NCBI GenBank assembly: GCA_965228485.1
Contig: OZ245819.1
Span: forward strand, 30,001-62,000
Length of the DNA: 32,000 nucleotides
Direction: 5' to 3'
Origin: Candidatus Saccharimonadota bacterium
GTDB taxonomy: Bacteria; Patescibacteriota; Gracilibacteria; UBA4473
In this document: positions 413 through 17,384 of the stretch, piece by piece
Position numbering within the stretch: position 1 is the stretch's first letter
Layout: each line of letters starts with the position of its first letter
Made by a program: the position numbers and the translations under genes
The notes under the pieces: generated by a model
Database searches by the model: none
What the model was told of the DNA's origin: nothing
What the model saw: only the letters and a program-made list of their open reading frames with translations

Positions 413-645
413 CAGAGAAAGTAGATACGCCTTATCATGAGATTAGGAGGATCAGAAAAGAACAGAGGGAAGCCATCAAAACCTTTAAGCTAGTAGATCA
501 AAAGTATCTCAGAGTCTTTTACCCAGACTATGCTTCTAAAATTATCAAAGAAGCTCAGAAAGGAAGCTTTCCAAGAATTAAGCACAAGGGGAAATGGTAT
601 TACAACAAACAACAGATTAGTTTTTATTGTAGAGGTCTTGAATAG
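409..645 (+). CDS. small basic protein, possibly excisionase/MerR-type HTH-like
   Basis: 78 aa. The C-terminal 'GSFPRIKHKGKWYYNKQQISFY' resembles the 'G.lP..K.G..w.....i' wing pattern of excisionase-family DNA binders. The start is coupled to the upstream ORF and the 3' end converges on and overlaps the 1244-aa gene. Weak, by eye only. Confidence 0.3.
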   Translation: MTEKVDTPYHEIRRIRKEQREAIKTFKLVDQKYLRVFYPDYASKIIKEAQKGSFPRIKHKGKWYYNKQQISFYCRGLE

Positions 646-3600
646 AATTATTAGCTAGGAATATGCCGTTTCTATCATAAAGAGGATCTATTTCGGTTGA
701 GTAAATGTCTAGTTGATGCTTTAGAAGTTTTATCTTCTCCTCGGCTAAAAAGCTAACATCAATGTCTTTTTTCCGATTCTTTTCAAGAACCAGATCAAAG
801 TGCTTTTTAAGTATTGCACTTACTAACTCACGATCTCTACTACGGAGAAGGGGAGGAATTATCTCAGCGAAAATCCTACCACACATTTCAACTGTTAAAC
901 TATCATCTAGAACAATACCTCTCATAAATTGGCATACAAACCCTAAAGCTGTCTCTAAATTCACACCATAGTTCTCAGAAAGAGTGAGGTCTAAATGTAG
1001 GTGTTTTATGTTTTCGGGCGTAAAAACATCTACAGCACCATTTCCAAAAACGGCTTTGGATAGATCATCAACTTTTAACTGTAAGAAAAACAACCTGTAA
1101 CCACATAAATAGCTGAAAAACTCTAAATACTCTTGAAATGATACTTTCTTTTCCTCACACAAGGCTCTTACAATAAAAATGATGGATGCAAATTTAGGGG
1201 CTTCGCTCTCAGTTTCTACTGCATTTGCACGCACATATAAAAAGTCTTCTGTAATAACACAGGCTCCATTATTTTTAGCTAGGATGGTTGCATCACATAG
1301 TTCTGGTGGAACTTCTTTCTCGGTAAAAGCTTCTGCTTTGTTTACAGGGGAAATTGTTTCAACCTTAGCCTTGTTTTCTAGGTAACTAATGAAGTTATTA
1401 AAATTATCTTTTACCTTTTCATATTTGGAAGGATCTATTTCGTTTAATCTTATCCCACTATCATCGGAATAACTCATATGCCCTGCCTGATTTGGTGAAG
1501 ACTCAAATCTATCCCTAACGGAAAAGAGGTATTTAATAACAGATTGGGGCACCCTTAGATCCGCAATGTGATCTAAAACACGAGTTAAGTTTCGTTCAGC
1601 TAAAAACAGAGCAGAGGTAGCATCTAAATAGACAGGTGAGCCTTCTAGTATCTTAGAAGAATTTTCTTCTTGTTCTTGGATAGCTTGCACTGTGTTGTGT
1701 GAGCATTTCACGAAGCCTTTTTGTTCTTGGCTTATTCTTCCTACAGCACTTGTTAGTCCTCCTTCACTCATTGCTAAAAATGCTAAAGGAACAGGCGTTG
1801 TACAGTAGCTTTGGAAAAAATCGGAACTTCCTGATTGTGATTGCAAAGCTTTAACAAGATAAGTGGTGTCAATGGAATCTCCATCCATTGGTACTTCCAC
1901 TAAAAATCCATGAGGCCAGCTAGGTTCTTTACAGAGCTTCATAAAAGACTCTCTAGATTGCCAAAGGATGTACTGTTCTCTAGAAAAAATCAGTTCAATA
2001 ACTTCTTCACTTTTTTCAGAAGTAAAGGCTCCTACCTCTCTTTCTACCTTATCTCCTAGTTCTTTACCCAAGAAGGATTGTTCCTCATAGGGTTGAATCT
2101 TGGTGGCATCTAACACATTACCATTACCTAGATAATAAAACCGGTCTTGGTCTTTAATCTTTAGGAAAGTTTCCTGATCTACTACATCTAGAGAGTTTAG
2201 ATTAGGAGCTTCATCTTTTAATAAACCTTCAATCTGAGTAAAGGGCATAAAGAGTCTGGCATAATCTTCGGGAGTGTGAGTAACTGCAATGTCAACAGAC
2301 TCAATCAAAGAATCAAGAGCTTTAGCTCCATCGGCATTTCTTACATGTAGTGAAGACTCAAGTAGCTTAATGTTTTCAGAGCTAACTATGTGGCCAAATT
2401 TTTGTATAAGGTCTAAGGCTTTGGATACTTCCCCTCGTTCGGCTAATGATTGTAAAGTTTGACCTAATACAGCCTCTTTATTATGTCTATCCAAACTGTC
2501 TACTAGATCTGGAGTGTCTAGTATTTTTTCTCCCAATTCCGCCGCTTCCTTATTGTTATCAGCTTTCAATAACGCAGAAAAAAGCATCAGTTCTGCATTC
2601 TTAGTTTTTGTTTCATTAGTCCCTATGGAAATGGCTCCCTTTAGACATGCTATCTCTATGTCCCATGCTTCATTTTTGTTTGCAACTTCCGCAAAAAATA
2701 GAAGTTCTTCTTGAAAACGAACCTGTTCCAAATTAATGGTTCGTAAATGTGGTAATGCTAACTCAAATTCTCCTTTCTTACAGTGATCTCTAAGTAAAAG
2801 CTTATTAGTTTCAATTTCGGGAAATTCGCTTGTTTTTTCAATAACTATCCGTGAAATTTCACCGAACTCTGAAGGCAGTAGATTAGCAACTACAGCACCG
2901 AACAACATATCTTCCTCTAAAATTTTAACACTAGCTTCAACATCGGGCTTTTCTAAAGCTTCAATGAGTGAAACGAATGTCTCGCACTCTAGTTCTTTGT
3001 AAAAACTTTTGGCATCACTAAACAAGCGATCCCTTGAAATAAACTGAAAAAATAAGACCTGTGAAAGTTCTTTAAGTAGTTTCGGCTTGCTTGCTACGAT
3101 ATGATTAATCAGTTGGTTAAAAGTATCTTCAGGAGGACAAAGTATTTTTAAGAAGCTTGCCAATGCTTCTTGCATTGATCTATCCAAATTACAACGAGGG
3201 ATTAAATCAAAAACCGTAGTTCCAGTACTTTCATAAACTGAATTTGGTGGGTTATTATTGTGTTTGGCATTCTCAAGATTGAACCTAAATGCTGTCAGAT
3301 TTAACTTTTTTCTCGGATTGTTTTCTTTGGAAATGCCAAAATCAGCCTCAATTTCAGACATGTAGGCTAGAAGTTTTTCTATTTTTTCTACAGGCACTAG
3401 GTCTTGCTGAAGATCTTCAATAATTTCATCTTGATCAAAACTGATTCTTGCCATCTTATTCTCTAATCTATCTGGGTTTAAGTGTTCAGCTTTCTCAATA
3501 AACTCAACTGATTTTTGAGGAGCATTTTTTTGTAAAAGTATTGAGTATAGCCGGTATAAATTGGCCTTAGATCTTTTTTCCGTAGGAAATAAACTTTCAT

Positions 3601-4351
3601 CTACATCTTCTGTGGAAAGTGATTCTTCTAATCGGCATGAACGAACTAACTTTTGAGCCTGTAATAAAGAATCTTCTGGAGCTATTACTTCAACATGCAC
3701 TAATAACTCATTATTTCTATCAAAATCTCCATTATTTAGAGCTTGACCAGCTAAATACAAAAAGGCTCTGGGATCTTCAGGAAAGCGTTTGCTTAGGCTG
3801 TCATAGATGTCTTGTGATTCTCCAGTTCTCTCTAACAAAGATAAAGCTCTAGCCTGTATAATCTCAAAATCCAATTCAAGCGAATCATCTCTAGCAAAGG
3901 TAAAGCTAAGCTTTATGGCTTCCAGTATTTTAAGTACATCAAGAGCCTGTTCTCTATCAAGAAGAGTCTCTAAGTACTCAATTTGTAGATTGAGTAGATC
4001 TGAGTTAATCCTAGATGCGTTTTTAGATTTTTGAGCTTCTGCCTCTGCCTTCTTTTTCCATTCTAACAATAGTTCTTTGGGATAATCAGATTCTTCCCCT
4101 TTATCAACAAGAATATGACATGTTGGACATAATGCAATTAAGTTGGAGGCACTGTTTCTTTGTTCTTCTGTTAGATTTGGATCGTACCTTTTGGCAGTTG
4201 GTCTTTCTCCGCATATATGTGCGGCTTCTCCAATGAGAGTGCTATTTTGGGTTAAGTGGTTAGAACAATCTGGATGACAACATTTTCCACCACAATTTAT
4301 GTAGAGAATTAGTTTTTGGGGATACGATATGGACTTTCTGTTTTCGCTCAT
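617..4351 (-). CDS. 1244-aa multidomain protein: N-terminal HNH nuclease motif, helical/TPR-like repeats, GreA/B C-terminal-like segment, PIN-like domain, helical tail
   Basis: Uninterrupted 3.7-kb ORF. HNH at aa 20-80 (CGGKCCHPDC...GEAAHICGERP...NLIALCPTCH, nt ~4097-4309). GreAB-C-like at aa ~725-790 (QPYEEQSFLGKELGDKVEREVG...EEVIELI, nt ~1982-2179). PIN-like acidic residues at YLDATS (D910), CDATILAKNNGACVITEDF (D1020, D1036), nt ~1217-1639. Confidence 0.85.
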   Translation of the reverse strand: MSENRKSISYPQKLILYINCGGKCCHPDCSNHLTQNSTLIGEAAHICGERPTAKRYDPNLTEEQRNSASNLIALCPTCHILVDKGEESDYPKELLLEWKKKAEAEAQKSKNASRINSDLLNLQIEYLETLLDREQALDVLKILEAIKLSFTFARDDSLELDFEIIQARALSLLERTGESQDIYDSLSKRFPEDPRAFLYLAGQALNNGDFDRNNELLVHVEVIAPEDSLLQAQKLVRSCRLEESLSTEDVDESLFPTEKRSKANLYRLYSILLQKNAPQKSVEFIEKAEHLNPDRLENKMARISFDQDEIIEDLQQDLVPVEKIEKLLAYMSEIEADFGISKENNPRKKLNLTAFRFNLENAKHNNNPPNSVYESTGTTVFDLIPRCNLDRSMQEALASFLKILCPPEDTFNQLINHIVASKPKLLKELSQVLFFQFISRDRLFSDAKSFYKELECETFVSLIEALEKPDVEASVKILEEDMLFGAVVANLLPSEFGEISRIVIEKTSEFPEIETNKLLLRDHCKKGEFELALPHLRTINLEQVRFQEELLFFAEVANKNEAWDIEIACLKGAISIGTNETKTKNAELMLFSALLKADNNKEAAELGEKILDTPDLVDSLDRHNKEAVLGQTLQSLAERGEVSKALDLIQKFGHIVSSENIKLLESSLHVRNADGAKALDSLIESVDIAVTHTPEDYARLFMPFTQIEGLLKDEAPNLNSLDVVDQETFLKIKDQDRFYYLGNGNVLDATKIQPYEEQSFLGKELGDKVEREVGAFTSEKSEEVIELIFSREQYILWQSRESFMKLCKEPSWPHGFLVEVPMDGDSIDTTYLVKALQSQSGSSDFFQSYCTTPVPLAFLAMSEGGLTSAVGRISQEQKGFVKCSHNTVQAIQEQEENSSKILEGSPVYLDATSALFLAERNLTRVLDHIADLRVPQSVIKYLFSVRDRFESSPNQAGHMSYSDDSGIRLNEIDPSKYEKVKDNFNNFISYLENKAKVETISPVNKAEAFTEKEVPPELCDATILAKNNGACVITEDFLYVRANAVETESEAPKFASIIFIVRALCEEKKVSFQEYLEFFSYLCGYRLFFLQLKVDDLSKAVFGNGAVDVFTPENIKHLHLDLTLSENYGVNLETALGFVCQFMRGIVLDDSLTVEMCGRIFAEIIPPLLRSRDRELVSAILKKHFDLVLEKNRKKDIDVSFLAEEKIKLLKHQLDIYSTEIDPLYDRNGIFLANNSIQDLYNKN

Positions 4352-11557: not shown

Positions 11558-11902
11558 TTATAGTCCCAGCTTTTTGAGTTCGTCATGAGCCATTCCAAAC
11601 ATGGATACAGAGGTTGATACCTCTACTTGGTTTTTCATGAGTCCTTTGATCTTAGCGGCTAATTCCAGTTCACCTCTTCGGCCACCCGGCTTGTTTACGA
11701 TGTCAAAGACAAGACTGGTGAGGATAAGTTCATCTGTGAGTCCACATTCATCACATAGCTCCCGAAAGCCTTTAGACTCAGTGAGCTTCTGTGGAGTCTT
11801 GGCAGTATTTGGACTATAGCCAGCATCTTTCATGGCTTGGCTTGCATTTCCACCATTTTCCACCATATTTTTGACGGCCGCTTTTTGTTTCTTGGTTACC
11901 AT
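11558..11902 (-). CDS. small HTH protein resembling the N-terminal DNA-binding part of phage terminase small subunits
   Basis: MVTKKQKAAVKNMVENGGNASQAMKDAGYSPNTAKTPQKL matches the 'KQ..F...Y...GNAT.A...AGYS..TA' pattern of Terminase_2-type small subunits. No other phage genes are nearby. Confidence 0.45.
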   Translation of the reverse strand: MVTKKQKAAVKNMVENGGNASQAMKDAGYSPNTAKTPQKLTESKGFRELCDECGLTDELILTSLVFDIVNKPGGRRGELELAAKIKGLMKNQVEVSTSVSMFGMAHDELKKLGL

Positions 11903-13454: not shown

Positions 13455-16400
13455 ATGAAAAAGTTATTTCTCATTTACGTATTTTTACTACTTCCCCTTC
13501 AAGGTTTTGCTCAGGAAGCTGAATCAGAATCTTCGGAACCTGTGGAAGATCAGAATCTTGCTGAAGAAATTGTTGTAGAGCCAGAAATAGTACCTGATAC
13601 TCCAGGGATAAGTTTGCTGGCGTATCCGCCACCGCCTCCACCAGAACCACCCAAACCTATTCCACCAGACCCTTTGGCTATGATGAAGGGGTTTGGAGGA
13701 AAGTCTGATGTAGGGCTTTTTAGTGGGAGTTTGAATTTTGATTATCCTCTTTCTTTGCCCGCTGGACGAGTCGGAATGCAGCCCAGTTTGTCGCTTGTTT
13801 ACAGTAGTAATGAAAGAAAATTTGGTGGAATTACTGGATTTGGATGGGATATTCCAATGAGTCAGATTTATCGAAGTACAGAAAAAGGAATTGATAATCT
13901 TTACACTCAAGATGACTTTGTGGCGAGTGTAAATGGCCAAGCTTCGGAATTATTGCCGGTTGATTCTGTGAATAATTTGTATGGAGCGAAAATTGAATCT
14001 AATTTTACCAAATTTGAATTTACCAATGGTTATTGGCTTGCTACCGATACTAGAGGTTGGAAATATTATTTTGGTCAAACGATTGCTAGCCAACAAGTTG
14101 ATCCCAATGATAGTACTCGAGTCTATAAATGGTTAATTGATCGAGTAGAAGAACCCAATGGGAATTATATGACTTTTACCTACACGAAAGATCAAGGACA
14201 GATATATCCCGAAACAATTCGTTATACTGGACATGCTAATGTAGATGCAGGGAATTACGAAGTGAAGTTTGTACTTGCCAATCGACCAGCTTACACCGAA
14301 TACCAAAGAGGGTTTAGAGTGGTAACGGCTAAACAGATAAAAGAAATTGAGATTTATCACTATGATTCGGGAAGTCCCGTTTTGGTGAATGAGTATGTGC
14401 TTGATTATTTTTCTAAAAACAATGCGACTCAATTATTAACGGGGATTACTCAGCAAAAGGGGAGTAACATTTTGCCTTCGACAAACTTTGCTTATTTTGA
14501 TGGAACAGAATCTGAAACAAATAAAAAAATTAATCTTCTCAAAACTATTAACTATCCGTATGGGGGGATAGAAAATTTTACGTATAAACCTTCTACGGCC
14601 TATAAAGTTGGAAACGATTTAGCCAATAAAGTGCCGTTTGTAATTCATACTCTCTTTGAACGAAAATTACAGGCAGGGAGTACTGATCCAATCCATACTA
14701 CTCAGTATGAATATGAGGGAGGACACTACTATTATGATAATCTTGATGCTTATAAAAAAGAGTATGCAGGGTTTCATAAAGTAGCCGTGATTGATCCAGA
14801 GTTGAATGTTTCTCGACATTATTTTCATCAGAGTGAGTTTTCTTTTGATGGGAGTTTGATGGGAGAATATCAGGATAATATTGCTAAAAAAGGTCGTGAA
14901 TACCGCATTGATATTTTTAATGATAGTAACAATCTGTATCAGACAACTTGGCAAAAATGGGATAGGTTGGTGCTTACCGATGAGCATCCGACTAAAGAAC
15001 GAAATTTTGTGTTTTTATCAGAAACGGTAACTTCTGATTTTGACGGTGATGTCAATGCTCGTTCCCGAGCTAAAAGTTTCCTTTATGATGCATATGGGAA
15101 CGTCACAGAAGATAAGAATTTTGGCGAGGTGACGGTAAATGATGATGCAGGAAACTTTACTGATATTGGTTCTGATCTCACAAAAGAAGAAACTACTTAC
15201 GCTTACAATCCAACTGATTACTTAGTAGCGTTTCCAAAACAAATTGAGAGTTTTGACCAAAATAATACGGTTATAGCTTGGCAACGTCGTCACTATGATC
15301 TTCTGACTTGGGCGAATACAGATTCTCTAACAAAGGGTAATGAAACCACTCGAAGTATTCGTTATAAAACGAGTCCTGATGAAACCTATGAACTTGATTG
15401 GAACTACACATTAGAAGGGAATTTAGATTGGACGAAAGACGCATTAGATAACCAAACAACCTACGCGTATGACGCGAAGAAACTTCAGCCAACTCAGATT
15501 ACCAATGCCAAAAGTCAGGTGAGTCATTTAACTTATGATTACCGTTTTGGTCAGGTGTCTGAATCAGAAGATCCCAACGGACATAAATTTATTACGGTTT
15601 ATGATGATTTTGGTCGAGCAATTGAGACAAAAGTTACGAGTCCGAGTAATACAGCGATAGAGGTGACTCAGAGTCAGACTGTTTTTGATCTGGTGAATCA
15701 GCCTGTCTCTATTACGCAAAAACTCTTTACTCAAAATGCGGGTATTGTGGCGGAATCTATTAACTATTTGGATGGACTTGGAAGAGGGATTCAAACTCGA
15801 ACCGAAAGTGAAAGTCCAAACTTTGTCGTAAAAAATACGGTCTATGATAGCCGTGGAAATGTCGCAAAAGAAATACTCCCAGTTCATGCTTTGGGTAGCG
15901 CTTTTGAGACGATCGATGCTAATGGAGTGGGGAATAGTTTTGCCTATGATCCATTAGGGAGACAAACTCAGATTTCTAATGTGCTGGGAACGACCAATAT
16001 TGTTTATGATCAGTGGGAAGTTCAGACGACCGACAGTGAGAATAACCGTCGAGATTTACTTTATGATGGACGGGAAAGATTGGTTGGGGTTCGAGAATAT
16101 TTGGGAGGAACACCTTACACAACCGATTATGTTTATAACACTTTAGATCAGTTAATTCAGATCGAGGATGCTTTGGGGAATCAGAAAGATTTCACCTATA
16201 ACTTAGCGGGGTGGAAGTTATCGGAATCAGATTTTCATCGAGTGGTAGATACGACCGTAGGGATCAAAAACTTTACGTACGATCTTAATGGTGACTTACT
16301 TTCTCGTACCGATGCAAAAGCTCAAACGGTTAATTGGACGTACGATGAATTACGTAGAATTTTGACCGAAGACGATCCATCTGAAACAGGAATAGAAGTG

Positions 16401-17384
16401 ACCTATACTTATGATTCTGGAACGAATGGGATTGGTCGTTTATCGAGTATCGATGCACCAGATAGTGATAAAAATTTCACCTATGATAGTCTTGGAAGAG
16501 CGACTGAGATTCAACAAACAATTGATGGTCAGACCTTCAACCTGAACTTTACTTATGATCTTCTTGGGCAACCGTTAAACATAACCTATCCAAATGGAAA
16601 TGTGGCCAACTATACCTACAACTCGGCAGGACAACTCAGTGGTGTAAGCTCAGGTATTGACCCAGTGGTTTCGAATATTGACTACGCTCCAACGGGAAGT
16701 GTGAGTCAGATAGATTTTGCTAATGGGGTTACGACTCAGAATACCTATGATGTTAATCAGCTTTACCGATTAACTAACAAGCTCACTCAATACGGAACGA
16801 CTAAGTTACAAAATCTGGCTTACACTTATGATTCGGTGGGGAATATTACTCAGATTGTTGATGGGAGTGATACCAATACCGCGAAAACCACGATTTATAC
16901 TTACGATGATCTCTATCGATTGATTCAGGCGGTTGTGAGTAATAGCGCGAATAATACCGACTACAGTCGGACTTATACCTACGACATTATTGGAAATATG
17001 TTAACTCGTTCAGATGTGGGAAGTTATAGTTATGCGGGGAATGTGAGTAGCACTTCGAGTGGTACAAATGCAACTCCGCATGCTGTAACCGATGTGGCTG
17101 GAACGACATACCTCTATGATGACAATGGAAACCTGGTTTCTGATAGCGTATGGACTCATGCTTGGGATTATCAGGATAGACTGGAAAGTTCTACGAATGG
17201 AACCGATACGATTAATTATCAGTACGATGAAACTCGTGATCGAGTACTCAAGCATAACACGGTTACTGGTAAGAAAACCTACTACATTGATAAATACTAT
17301 GATCTAGAAGATACCACGGCAAAAGCTCATATTTTTGCAGGGAATACGAAAATTGCGACTCATAAAACTGACATGACTCAATAA
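13455..17384 (+). CDS. secreted RHS/YD-repeat shell protein with N-terminal SpvB/TcdB-N-type domain (TcB-like), lacking the conserved RHS C-terminal core
   Basis: Signal peptide and a poly-Pro linker (PPPPPPEPPKPIPPDP). SpvB-type motif GSLNFDYPLSLPAGRVGMQPSLSLVYSSNERKFGGITGFGWDIPMSQIYRSTEKG. TcdB-mid-like YKWLIDRVEEPNGNYMTFTYT...IRYTG. Many YD repeats (YDAYGN, YDSRGN, YDPLGR, YDSLGR, YDSVGN, YDDNGN) from ~15078 to ~17325. Ends ...HIFAGNTKIATHKTDMTQ at TAA 17382-17384. Confidence 0.9.
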   Translation: MKKLFLIYVFLLLPLQGFAQEAESESSEPVEDQNLAEEIVVEPEIVPDTPGISLLAYPPPPPPEPPKPIPPDPLAMMKGFGGKSDVGLFSGSLNFDYPLSLPAGRVGMQPSLSLVYSSNERKFGGITGFGWDIPMSQIYRSTEKGIDNLYTQDDFVASVNGQASELLPVDSVNNLYGAKIESNFTKFEFTNGYWLATDTRGWKYYFGQTIASQQVDPNDSTRVYKWLIDRVEEPNGNYMTFTYTKDQGQIYPETIRYTGHANVDAGNYEVKFVLANRPAYTEYQRGFRVVTAKQIKEIEIYHYDSGSPVLVNEYVLDYFSKNNATQLLTGITQQKGSNILPSTNFAYFDGTESETNKKINLLKTINYPYGGIENFTYKPSTAYKVGNDLANKVPFVIHTLFERKLQAGSTDPIHTTQYEYEGGHYYYDNLDAYKKEYAGFHKVAVIDPELNVSRHYFHQSEFSFDGSLMGEYQDNIAKKGREYRIDIFNDSNNLYQTTWQKWDRLVLTDEHPTKERNFVFLSETVTSDFDGDVNARSRAKSFLYDAYGNVTEDKNFGEVTVNDDAGNFTDIGSDLTKEETTYAYNPTDYLVAFPKQIESFDQNNTVIAWQRRHYDLLTWANTDSLTKGNETTRSIRYKTSPDETYELDWNYTLEGNLDWTKDALDNQTTYAYDAKKLQPTQITNAKSQVSHLTYDYRFGQVSESEDPNGHKFITVYDDFGRAIETKVTSPSNTAIEVTQSQTVFDLVNQPVSITQKLFTQNAGIVAESINYLDGLGRGIQTRTESESPNFVVKNTVYDSRGNVAKEILPVHALGSAFETIDANGVGNSFAYDPLGRQTQISNVLGTTNIVYDQWEVQTTDSENNRRDLLYDGRERLVGVREYLGGTPYTTDYVYNTLDQLIQIEDALGNQKDFTYNLAGWKLSESDFHRVVDTTVGIKNFTYDLNGDLLSRTDAKAQTVNWTYDELRRILTEDDPSETGIEVTYTYDSGTNGIGRLSSIDAPDSDKNFTYDSLGRATEIQQTIDGQTFNLNFTYDLLGQPLNITYPNGNVANYTYNSAGQLSGVSSGIDPVVSNIDYAPTGSVSQIDFANGVTTQNTYDVNQLYRLTNKLTQYGTTKLQNLAYTYDSVGNITQIVDGSDTNTAKTTIYTYDDLYRLIQAVVSNSANNTDYSRTYTYDIIGNMLTRSDVGSYSYAGNVSSTSSGTNATPHAVTDVAGTTYLYDDNGNLVSDSVWTHAWDYQDRLESSTNGTDTINYQYDETRDRVLKHNTVTGKKTYYIDKYYDLEDTTAKAHIFAGNTKIATHKTDMTQ

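Follow-up and report, generated by a model that had tools for sequence, protein, structure and literature searches.

The minus-strand gene at 617..4351 of a 32,000-nucleotide (nt) stretch of Candidatus Saccharimonadota contig OZ245819.1 (hereafter the window) encodes a 1244-amino acid (aa) protein in which an N-terminal HNH nuclease head is joined to TPR-like repeats, a GreA/B C-terminal-like (GreA/B-C) domain and a PIN nuclease. With high confidence, we assign this protein to the TPR-GreA/B-C-PIN (TGP) family. The gene is a divergent member of an architecture that has already been described, HNH head included, and it does not represent a new kind of system. The evidence consists of the domain composition, the catalytic residues of both nucleases, the modularity of the head and a defence-like distribution of relatives, all of which were observed, while anti-phage activity and engagement of RNA polymerase would be expected of this protein by analogy with Agp of the Escherichia coli Bab/Agp pair. 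Taken as a whole, the protein is probably a single-polypeptide anti-phage sensor-effector that acts through abortive infection.

The 1244-codon open reading frame (ORF) was taken from the ORF list of the window and read as a complete gene including its stop codon. The three closest HNH-headed relatives (P0025, P0026 and P0027) align with it from end to end, from aa 1-7 to approximately aa 1195, at 33-34% identity and E values of about 1e-190 to 1e-183. Because full-length homologs are found at E values near 1e-190, the ORF is a real gene and not a chance reading frame. The gene and its parts are as follows.

617..4351, minus strand: whole HNH-TPR-GreA/B-C-PIN (TGP-family) gene, 1244 aa (ORF list and end-to-end homologs)
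4025..4330, minus strand: HNH nuclease head, N-terminal, aa 8-109 (Pfam HNH_2, PADLOC and PDB matches, conservation)
2204..4024, minus strand: linker and putative helical/TPR-like region, aa 110-716 (TPR matches in aligned homologs; sequence only)
1976..2182, minus strand: predicted GreA/B C-terminal-like (FKBP-like) beta domain, aa 724-792 (AlphaFold2 model and Foldseek)
1691..1975, minus strand: conserved helical connector, aa 793-887, with the motif PLAxLAxSEGGLxxAxGRI (AlphaFold2 model and conservation)
1187..1690, minus strand: PIN nuclease domain, aa 888-1055, with D910, D1020, E1035 and D1036 (PF20698, Foldseek and conservation)
689..1186, minus strand: conserved all-helical C-terminal domain, aa 1056-1221 (AlphaFold2 model and conservation)

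Domain architecture of the protein

The Pfam HNH_2 profile matched the head at aa 39-85 with 24.9 bits against a gathering score of 21, and PADLOC profiles of known defence effectors matched over aa 2-190 (PDC-M68A, 3.9e-29; CBASS endonuclease effector, 2.6e-22; SAVED_HNH, 3.7e-21; SduA, 1.7e-10). In a PDB search the nearest solved structures of the head were 9om4 and the Cap5 CBASS effectors 7rwm, 7rwk and 8fm1. The motifs CGGKCCHPDC (aa 20-29), AAH45I and LC75PTC78H79 were located in the translation; H45, N70 and H79 were assigned as catalytic residues and C24, C29, C75 and C78 as zinc ligands. Conservation in 26 other HNH-headed TGP proteins reaches at least 90% at C24, C29, H45, N70, C75, H79 and D83. 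Given this conservation, H45 and H79, which a first-pass annotation of the window had proposed to mutate, are the correct targets for mutation. Judged from its sequence, the head appears to be a Cap5-type DNase with its catalytic residues intact. Its zinc site has the form C..C/C..C-H (LCPTCH), whereas most HNH-headed TGP proteins carry C..HH. Similar heads were also observed outside the family. A 791-aa protein (P0024) combines a head 42% identical to ours with an NB-ARC/STAND NTPase and TPR_10/12 repeats, a domain make-up which indicates that the same HNH head serves a different class of sensor. In addition, "lysogenic conversion" genes of P2-like phages (AJ512680.1 and OM140653.1) resemble the HNH head alone at 34-39% identity.

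Near the other end of the protein, PF20698 ("PIN domain associated with the TPR-GreAB-C-PIN system") matched aa 908-1040 with 28.4 bits against a gathering score of 27.8 (E = 2.2e-6), which places the family-specific PIN domain near the C-terminus. The corresponding motifs are YLD910ATS, CD1020ATILA and ITE1035D1036F. No substitution of the aspartates D910, D1020 or D1036 occurs among 19 close homologs, and each is conserved to at least 90% across 69 diverse relatives, so the acidic residues of the PIN domain are intact. An AlphaFold2 model of aa 700-1244, built on the 69-sequence diverse alignment, had a mean predicted local distance difference test (pLDDT) score of 90.4 and a predicted TM-score (pTM) of 0.83. 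The three aspartates lie at the ends of beta1, beta3 and beta4 in this model, and Foldseek returned the known PIN structures 3ix7 (E 1.3e-3, prob 1.0, TMt 0.60), PINA, SMG6, 3i8o and PAE2754. When only the 19 close homologs were supplied to AlphaFold2, the mean pLDDT was 56 and the Gre-like region was not resolved.

The high-confidence model also describes the segments on either side of the PIN domain. The connector (aa 793-887) consists of helices, with P855, L859, A869 and G879 at least 90% conserved in the 69 relatives. The tail (aa 1056-1221) is all-helical (pLDDT 84-98) and belongs to the constant core, beyond the Pfam PIN model. It carries the motifs YRxxFL, DDxxKAVFG and LTLSExYG, with R1086, S1125, Y1128 and G1129 at least 90% conserved in the same relatives. 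Foldseek against the PDB found no specific structural match for the tail. A viral structure library gave no specific match. The published description of the TPR, GreA/B-C and PIN architecture does not name this conserved tail domain.

The central part of the protein is less readily classified by profiles. Matches to TPR_16 and TPR_14 at aa 167-212 fell below the Pfam threshold (TPR_16 E = 0.066), while the homolog segment aligned to this part of the protein exceeds the gathering scores of TPR_16, TPR_19 and TPR_14. Sequence comparison of aa 110-716, a region about 35% identical across the family, suggests that TPR repeats precede the GreA/B-C domain, which is the arrangement that characterizes TGP proteins. 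The Gre-like segment itself (aa 724-792) was modelled with pLDDT 83-96, with W738, G742 and Y794 conserved to at least 90% among the 69 relatives. Foldseek against the PDB matched Rnk (3bmb_A, prob 1.00, E 0.085, 82 columns) and GreA/GreB (2pn0_D, prob 0.91, E 0.75, 77 columns, root-mean-square deviation 4.0); the output carried no query coordinates, and these Gre-family matches were placed at aa 724-792 by size and fold. An hhalign comparison weakly paired WFYIG...LDA...IGKxxGD with YRIVGDDEAD...LIGKEEDD of Escherichia coli GreA (E = 0.019, probability 2.5%), and the protein had no GreA_GreB_N or GreA_GreB match in Pfam at E <= 1. NCBIfam profiles gave no informative match for the 1244-aa protein. 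In the model, a domain resembling the C-terminal domain of GreA/B directly precedes the PIN domain, the order described for the TGP system.

The first-pass annotation had reported the ORF exactly as it was found here. Each of its four domain calls (HNH, helical/TPR, GreA/B-C and PIN) is backed by profile or structure evidence, and for GreA/B-C this backing stands at the structure level only, through the Rnk and GreA/GreB C-domain matches in the model. The HNH and PIN motifs that it quoted all occur in the translation, as does its GreA-like stretch, PYEEQSFLGKELGDKVERE...EVIELI, at aa 755-789; its helical spacer of roughly 800 aa corresponds to about 780 aa between the HNH and PIN domains. It had also proposed a PADLOC run, which matched the head to defence effectors, and an inspection of PIN active-site geometry in an AlphaFold model, which yielded the PIN fold and the strand-end aspartates described above.

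Head exchange on a constant core

A word-indexed search returned 22 core relatives at about 35% identity, each with a non-HNH head of approximately 170 aa. An exhaustive HMMER search retrieved 139 proteins at E <= 1e-30, and the 111 that were near full length were classified by head, with HNH heads counted by phmmer. Alignments to relatives that keep the core have E values from 1e-190 to 1e-40. LmuA-like heads are the most frequent (72 of 111), followed by HNH heads (27 with our protein included), Mrr-like heads (5), SIR2-like heads (2) and transmembrane (TM) heads (2); three proteins carry heads of no assigned type. On a neighbour-joining tree of the core, drawn without bootstrap, the head types are polyphyletic and interspersed in both major clades, which indicates repeated head replacement. 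A variable N-terminal head on a constant core is a defining trait of the TGP family. Since the HNH head is homologous to CBASS Cap5 and to other endonuclease effectors in PADLOC and is swapped among relatives, it is read here as the effector module.

The commonest head (the first ~170 aa of P0002-P0023 and of loci L001-L025, with GDxGNDGYR...IYYQVYAP...FVFNDK) has no Pfam match and a PADLOC match to LmuA of 1.4e-11, and thus resembles an effector domain, so far unannotated, that is shared with Lamassu. A scan of contigs for TGP loci used patterns taken partly from this LmuA-like head and returned that head only, so head frequencies are not estimable from the scan. The TGP genome loci, several of them with decayed copies, belong to the Candidate Phyla Radiation, Desulfobacterota, Bacteroidota, Bacillota, Chloroflexota and others. 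In seven loci of metagenome-assembled genomes (L004, L014, L016, L017, L019, L023 and L024), the TGP ORF is shorter or interrupted relative to its tblastn match, which suggests frameshifts, pseudogenisation or assembly errors. The Fluoribacter dumoffii Tex-KL plasmid NC_009966.1 also carries, at 53940-56600, a distantly related TGP core that is 24% identical over aa 320-1224 (E = 7e-45) and is annotated only as hypothetical. The window proteins that were looked up, ours included, are all singletons at 90% identity. The scatter over unrelated phyla, the decayed copies, the mobile or defence neighbours of homologs, the singleton status and the lower GC content of the gene together give it a defence-like ecology.

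Comparison with known systems and proposed mechanism

The combination of TPR, GreA/B-C and PIN domains, which the first-pass annotation had mentioned without a source, is a real and named system (PF20698; Kaur et al. 2021, eLife, PMC8195603; "TGP" in Ibarlosa et al. 2024). Kaur et al. described a constant unit of TPR, GreA/B-C and a new PIN domain in genes that are mostly standalone; its N-terminal EAD10 is elsewhere replaced by one of 13 effectors, including DNases (REase, HNH), and among the proteins in their source data is a standalone "HNH+TPR+GreAB-C+PIN" of 1234 aa (PMC8195603). The suggestion that the HNH head would be a further twist therefore fails, as this head is among those published with an explicit example, and 26 more HNH-headed proteins were found here. 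Our protein shares the domain order, size, system-specific PIN domain, standalone gene and a listed head type with the published system. It differs in its high divergence, the nearest relatives found being 33-36% identical, with PSL26440.1 of the Kaur et al. system outside the alignment comparison. In the model of those authors, the Gre-like domain enters the secondary channel of the polymerase, the PIN domain cuts the extruded transcript and the head is a back-up suicide effector (PMC8195603).

Experimental evidence within the family comes from one member. Agp, together with Bab, provides E. coli ECOR25 with abortive infection against T5 (Ibarlosa et al. 2024, 10.1101/2024.11.07.622273). Within this pair Agp is the sensor of infection. 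It has the same TPR-GreA/B-C-PIN core, and mutations in its GreA/B-C domain (S628L, L634P), designed after GreA mutations that alter the interaction of GreA with RNA polymerase, abolish defence (10.1101/2024.11.07.622273). Agp has a BASS11 amyloid motif at its N-terminus, and its signal goes to the separate Bell-domain pore-forming Bab, whereas our protein has an HNH nuclease fused in cis and neither an amyloid motif nor a partner gene. The BASS11 motif and adjacent Bell-domain gene that mark Bab/Agp are replaced here by an HNH domain from about residue 8 and by small ORFs with no family match. With the effector in cis and no partner gene, signal transfer must be intramolecular or proceed by oligomerisation.

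The head and the Gre-like domain each have relatives of known function. The HNH head is homologous to that of Cap5 (7rwk, 7rwm, 8fm1), with which it shares the H-N-H catalytic residues and the zinc ligands. Our protein lacks the SAVED domain of Cap5, its PADLOC and PDB matches ending at about aa 160-190 with the TGP core beyond, and no cyclase partner was identified for it. The Cap5 nuclease is activated by ligand-driven oligomerisation. By analogy, this activation mode suggests how our head may be controlled, with the TGP core as the regulator and not a cyclic-nucleotide sensor. The predicted beta domain of about 70 residues resembles the C-terminal domain with which GreA, GreB, Rnk and Gfh1 dock on RNA polymerase, although the sequences show no significant similarity. 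Gre factors are defined by an N-terminal antiparallel coiled-coil finger whose acidic tip reaches the polymerase active site; our protein lacks this finger, and TPR-like sequence precedes its Gre-like domain. VapBC-type toxin-antitoxin systems differ in that the PIN domain studied here is internal to a 1244-aa protein with no antitoxin-like neighbour.

Drawing on the proposals of Kaur et al. 2021, on experiments with Bab/Agp and on knowledge of Cap5, we infer the following mechanism. The TGP core would act as the sensor, its GreA/B-C-like domain docking at the secondary channel of RNA polymerase or otherwise reading phage-perturbed transcription, and the PIN domain may cut transcript RNA at the polymerase. 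Activation, probably through oligomerisation of the core, would bring the HNH heads together for non-specific DNA cleavage, and the infected cell would die or arrest before phage release.

Several points weigh against this account. The PF20698 match exceeds its threshold by only 0.6 bits, and the GreA/B-C call leans on predicted structure with weak Foldseek E values (0.085 and 0.75); a profile of the Gre-like segment searched against PDB sequences returned noise and no Gre-family match. No phage or integrase hallmark was seen beside the TGP gene, where the left flank in the window is only 617 nt. No experimental test of HNH-headed TGP members was found in the searchable literature and, to our knowledge, direct RNA polymerase binding has never been shown for any TGP protein. 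In Agp, the PIN mutant was destabilised and hence uninformative, and no activity independent of the effector was seen (10.1101/2024.11.07.622273).

A more elaborate version, which we regard as quite unlikely, would make the protein a two-tier immune nuclease. The Gre-like domain would plug the secondary channel of a phage-hijacked polymerase, the PIN domain would cleave the nascent transcript and the HNH head would be released only upon failure, with the tail (aa 1056-1221) as a switch or oligomerisation element. We know of no defence system for which such transcription-coupled immunity, by cleavage of the extruded nascent transcript, has been demonstrated. If this version were true, the HNH-headed class would be its cleanest test bed, with the effector fused in cis and an easy DNase read-out.

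It is also conceivable, if unlikely, that the TPR array binds a phage protein directly in the manner of Avs/STAND proteins, so that the protein oligomerises and the HNH head is activated; the Gre-like and PIN domains would then be structural or scaffolding relics. About half of the protein consists of these fast-evolving repeats, P0024 places a related head on a STAND NTPase with TPRs, and S628L and L634P could merely have broken the fold of Agp. The conservation of the PIN aspartates across the 69 relatives nevertheless argues for catalysis and not for a relic. The Gre-like domain likewise retains its near-invariant W738, G742 and Y794, and the Agp mutations mimic GreA mutations that change the interaction with polymerase.

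Genomic setting and significance

An RND pump gene and its membrane-fusion partner lie upstream on the same strand, the pump gene 105 nt from the TGP gene, and this gap held no terminator-like and no strong promoter-like site. Because no terminator-like site was found, monocistronic expression, as claimed in the first-pass annotation, is not established. GC content is 0.35-0.37 over the TGP gene versus 0.44-0.47 over the adjacent pump genes. On the plus strand, two small ORFs (125-412 and 409-645), noted previously as coupled, overlap each other by 4 nt; the former encodes a hydrophobic 95-aa product, and the latter, a 78-aa ORF that public collections call as a gene, is convergent with the TGP gene and overlaps its 3' end by 29 nt. 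Neither has a match in Pfam, PHROGs or PADLOC, and the proposal that ORF 409-645 is excisionase-like was rejected on this ground. The window contains no tRNA, and no meaningful direct or inverted repeats flank the TGP gene.

The neighbourhoods of homologs, whose analysis had also been proposed, contain IS66/IS4 transposases, an HsdM methylase and an HTH_17 gene (P0025) or an integrase and a HEPN gene (P0026), with nothing notable around P0027. No neighbour gene is common to the window and these three HNH-TGP loci, which show neither a shared partner nor synteny; a mostly standalone gene without conserved neighbours is typical of the TGP family. The earlier reading of an accessory or defence gene fits this context together with the patchy distribution and the head swapping.

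Such surroundings might also be expected of a selfish or addiction nuclease of a mobile element, such as a homing-type HNH enzyme or a toxin, and not of an immune sensor. HNH and PIN domains are both frequent in homing endonucleases and toxin-antitoxin systems, homologs lie near transposases and integrases, and the distribution is patchy with decayed copies. We consider this very unlikely, since the best matches of the head are regulated defence effectors (Cap5, PDC-M68A, SduA) and not homing enzymes, the gene has no conserved antitoxin-like partner and its flanks bear no insertion repeats or tRNA. Moreover, a regulatory body that stays constant over about 1100 aa while its heads are exchanged follows the grammar of an immune sensor, and the family member Agp has demonstrated anti-phage activity. 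A housekeeping role in transcription-coupled surveillance of RNA or DNA (stalled or backtracked polymerase, R-loops), perhaps co-expressed with the efflux operon, would suit a Gre-like domain with an RNase-type PIN capable of transcript quality control and a gene that follows a same-strand pump gene with no predicted terminator, but it is scarcely credible given that the relatives occur sporadically in different phyla, are often pseudogenised and are in no case syntenic, that SIR2-like, LmuA-like and Mrr-like killing modules are among their heads, that GC content differs from the pump genes and that no efflux operon adjoins any homolog locus examined.

Other features of the window were observed at some distance. 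About 9 kb from the TGP gene, a polymorphic-toxin-type locus at 13455-21504 on the plus strand encodes a protein of 1309 aa with SpvB, RHS repeats and DUF6443, an S8 subtilase of 870 aa and a protein of 305 aa bearing an Ntox24 toxin domain; with the TGP gene, this Rhs/SpvB-type locus places several conflict genes on this stretch of genome. Between an ArsP permease gene and the Rhs locus, the minus-strand ORF 11558-11902 (114 aa) matches the helix-turn-helix of terminase small subunits in its first ~35 residues (phrog_51, 3e-7; Terminase_2, 7e-4, below threshold) and may be the remnant of a mobile element. GC skew is negative up to about 12 kb and strongly positive beyond, with the genes switching from the minus to the plus strand at the same place.

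Many defence architectures have been predicted computationally; TGP is one of them, and among its members only Bab/Agp has experimental support. The gene leaves the picture of TGP systems unchanged. It adds a divergent, apparently intact HNH-headed example, with sensor and effector in a single chain, and illustrates the swapping of effectors on a constant sensor. In such a single-chain design DNA cleavage could read out activation of the sensor directly, which makes the gene useful for testing the unproven model of RNA polymerase surveillance.

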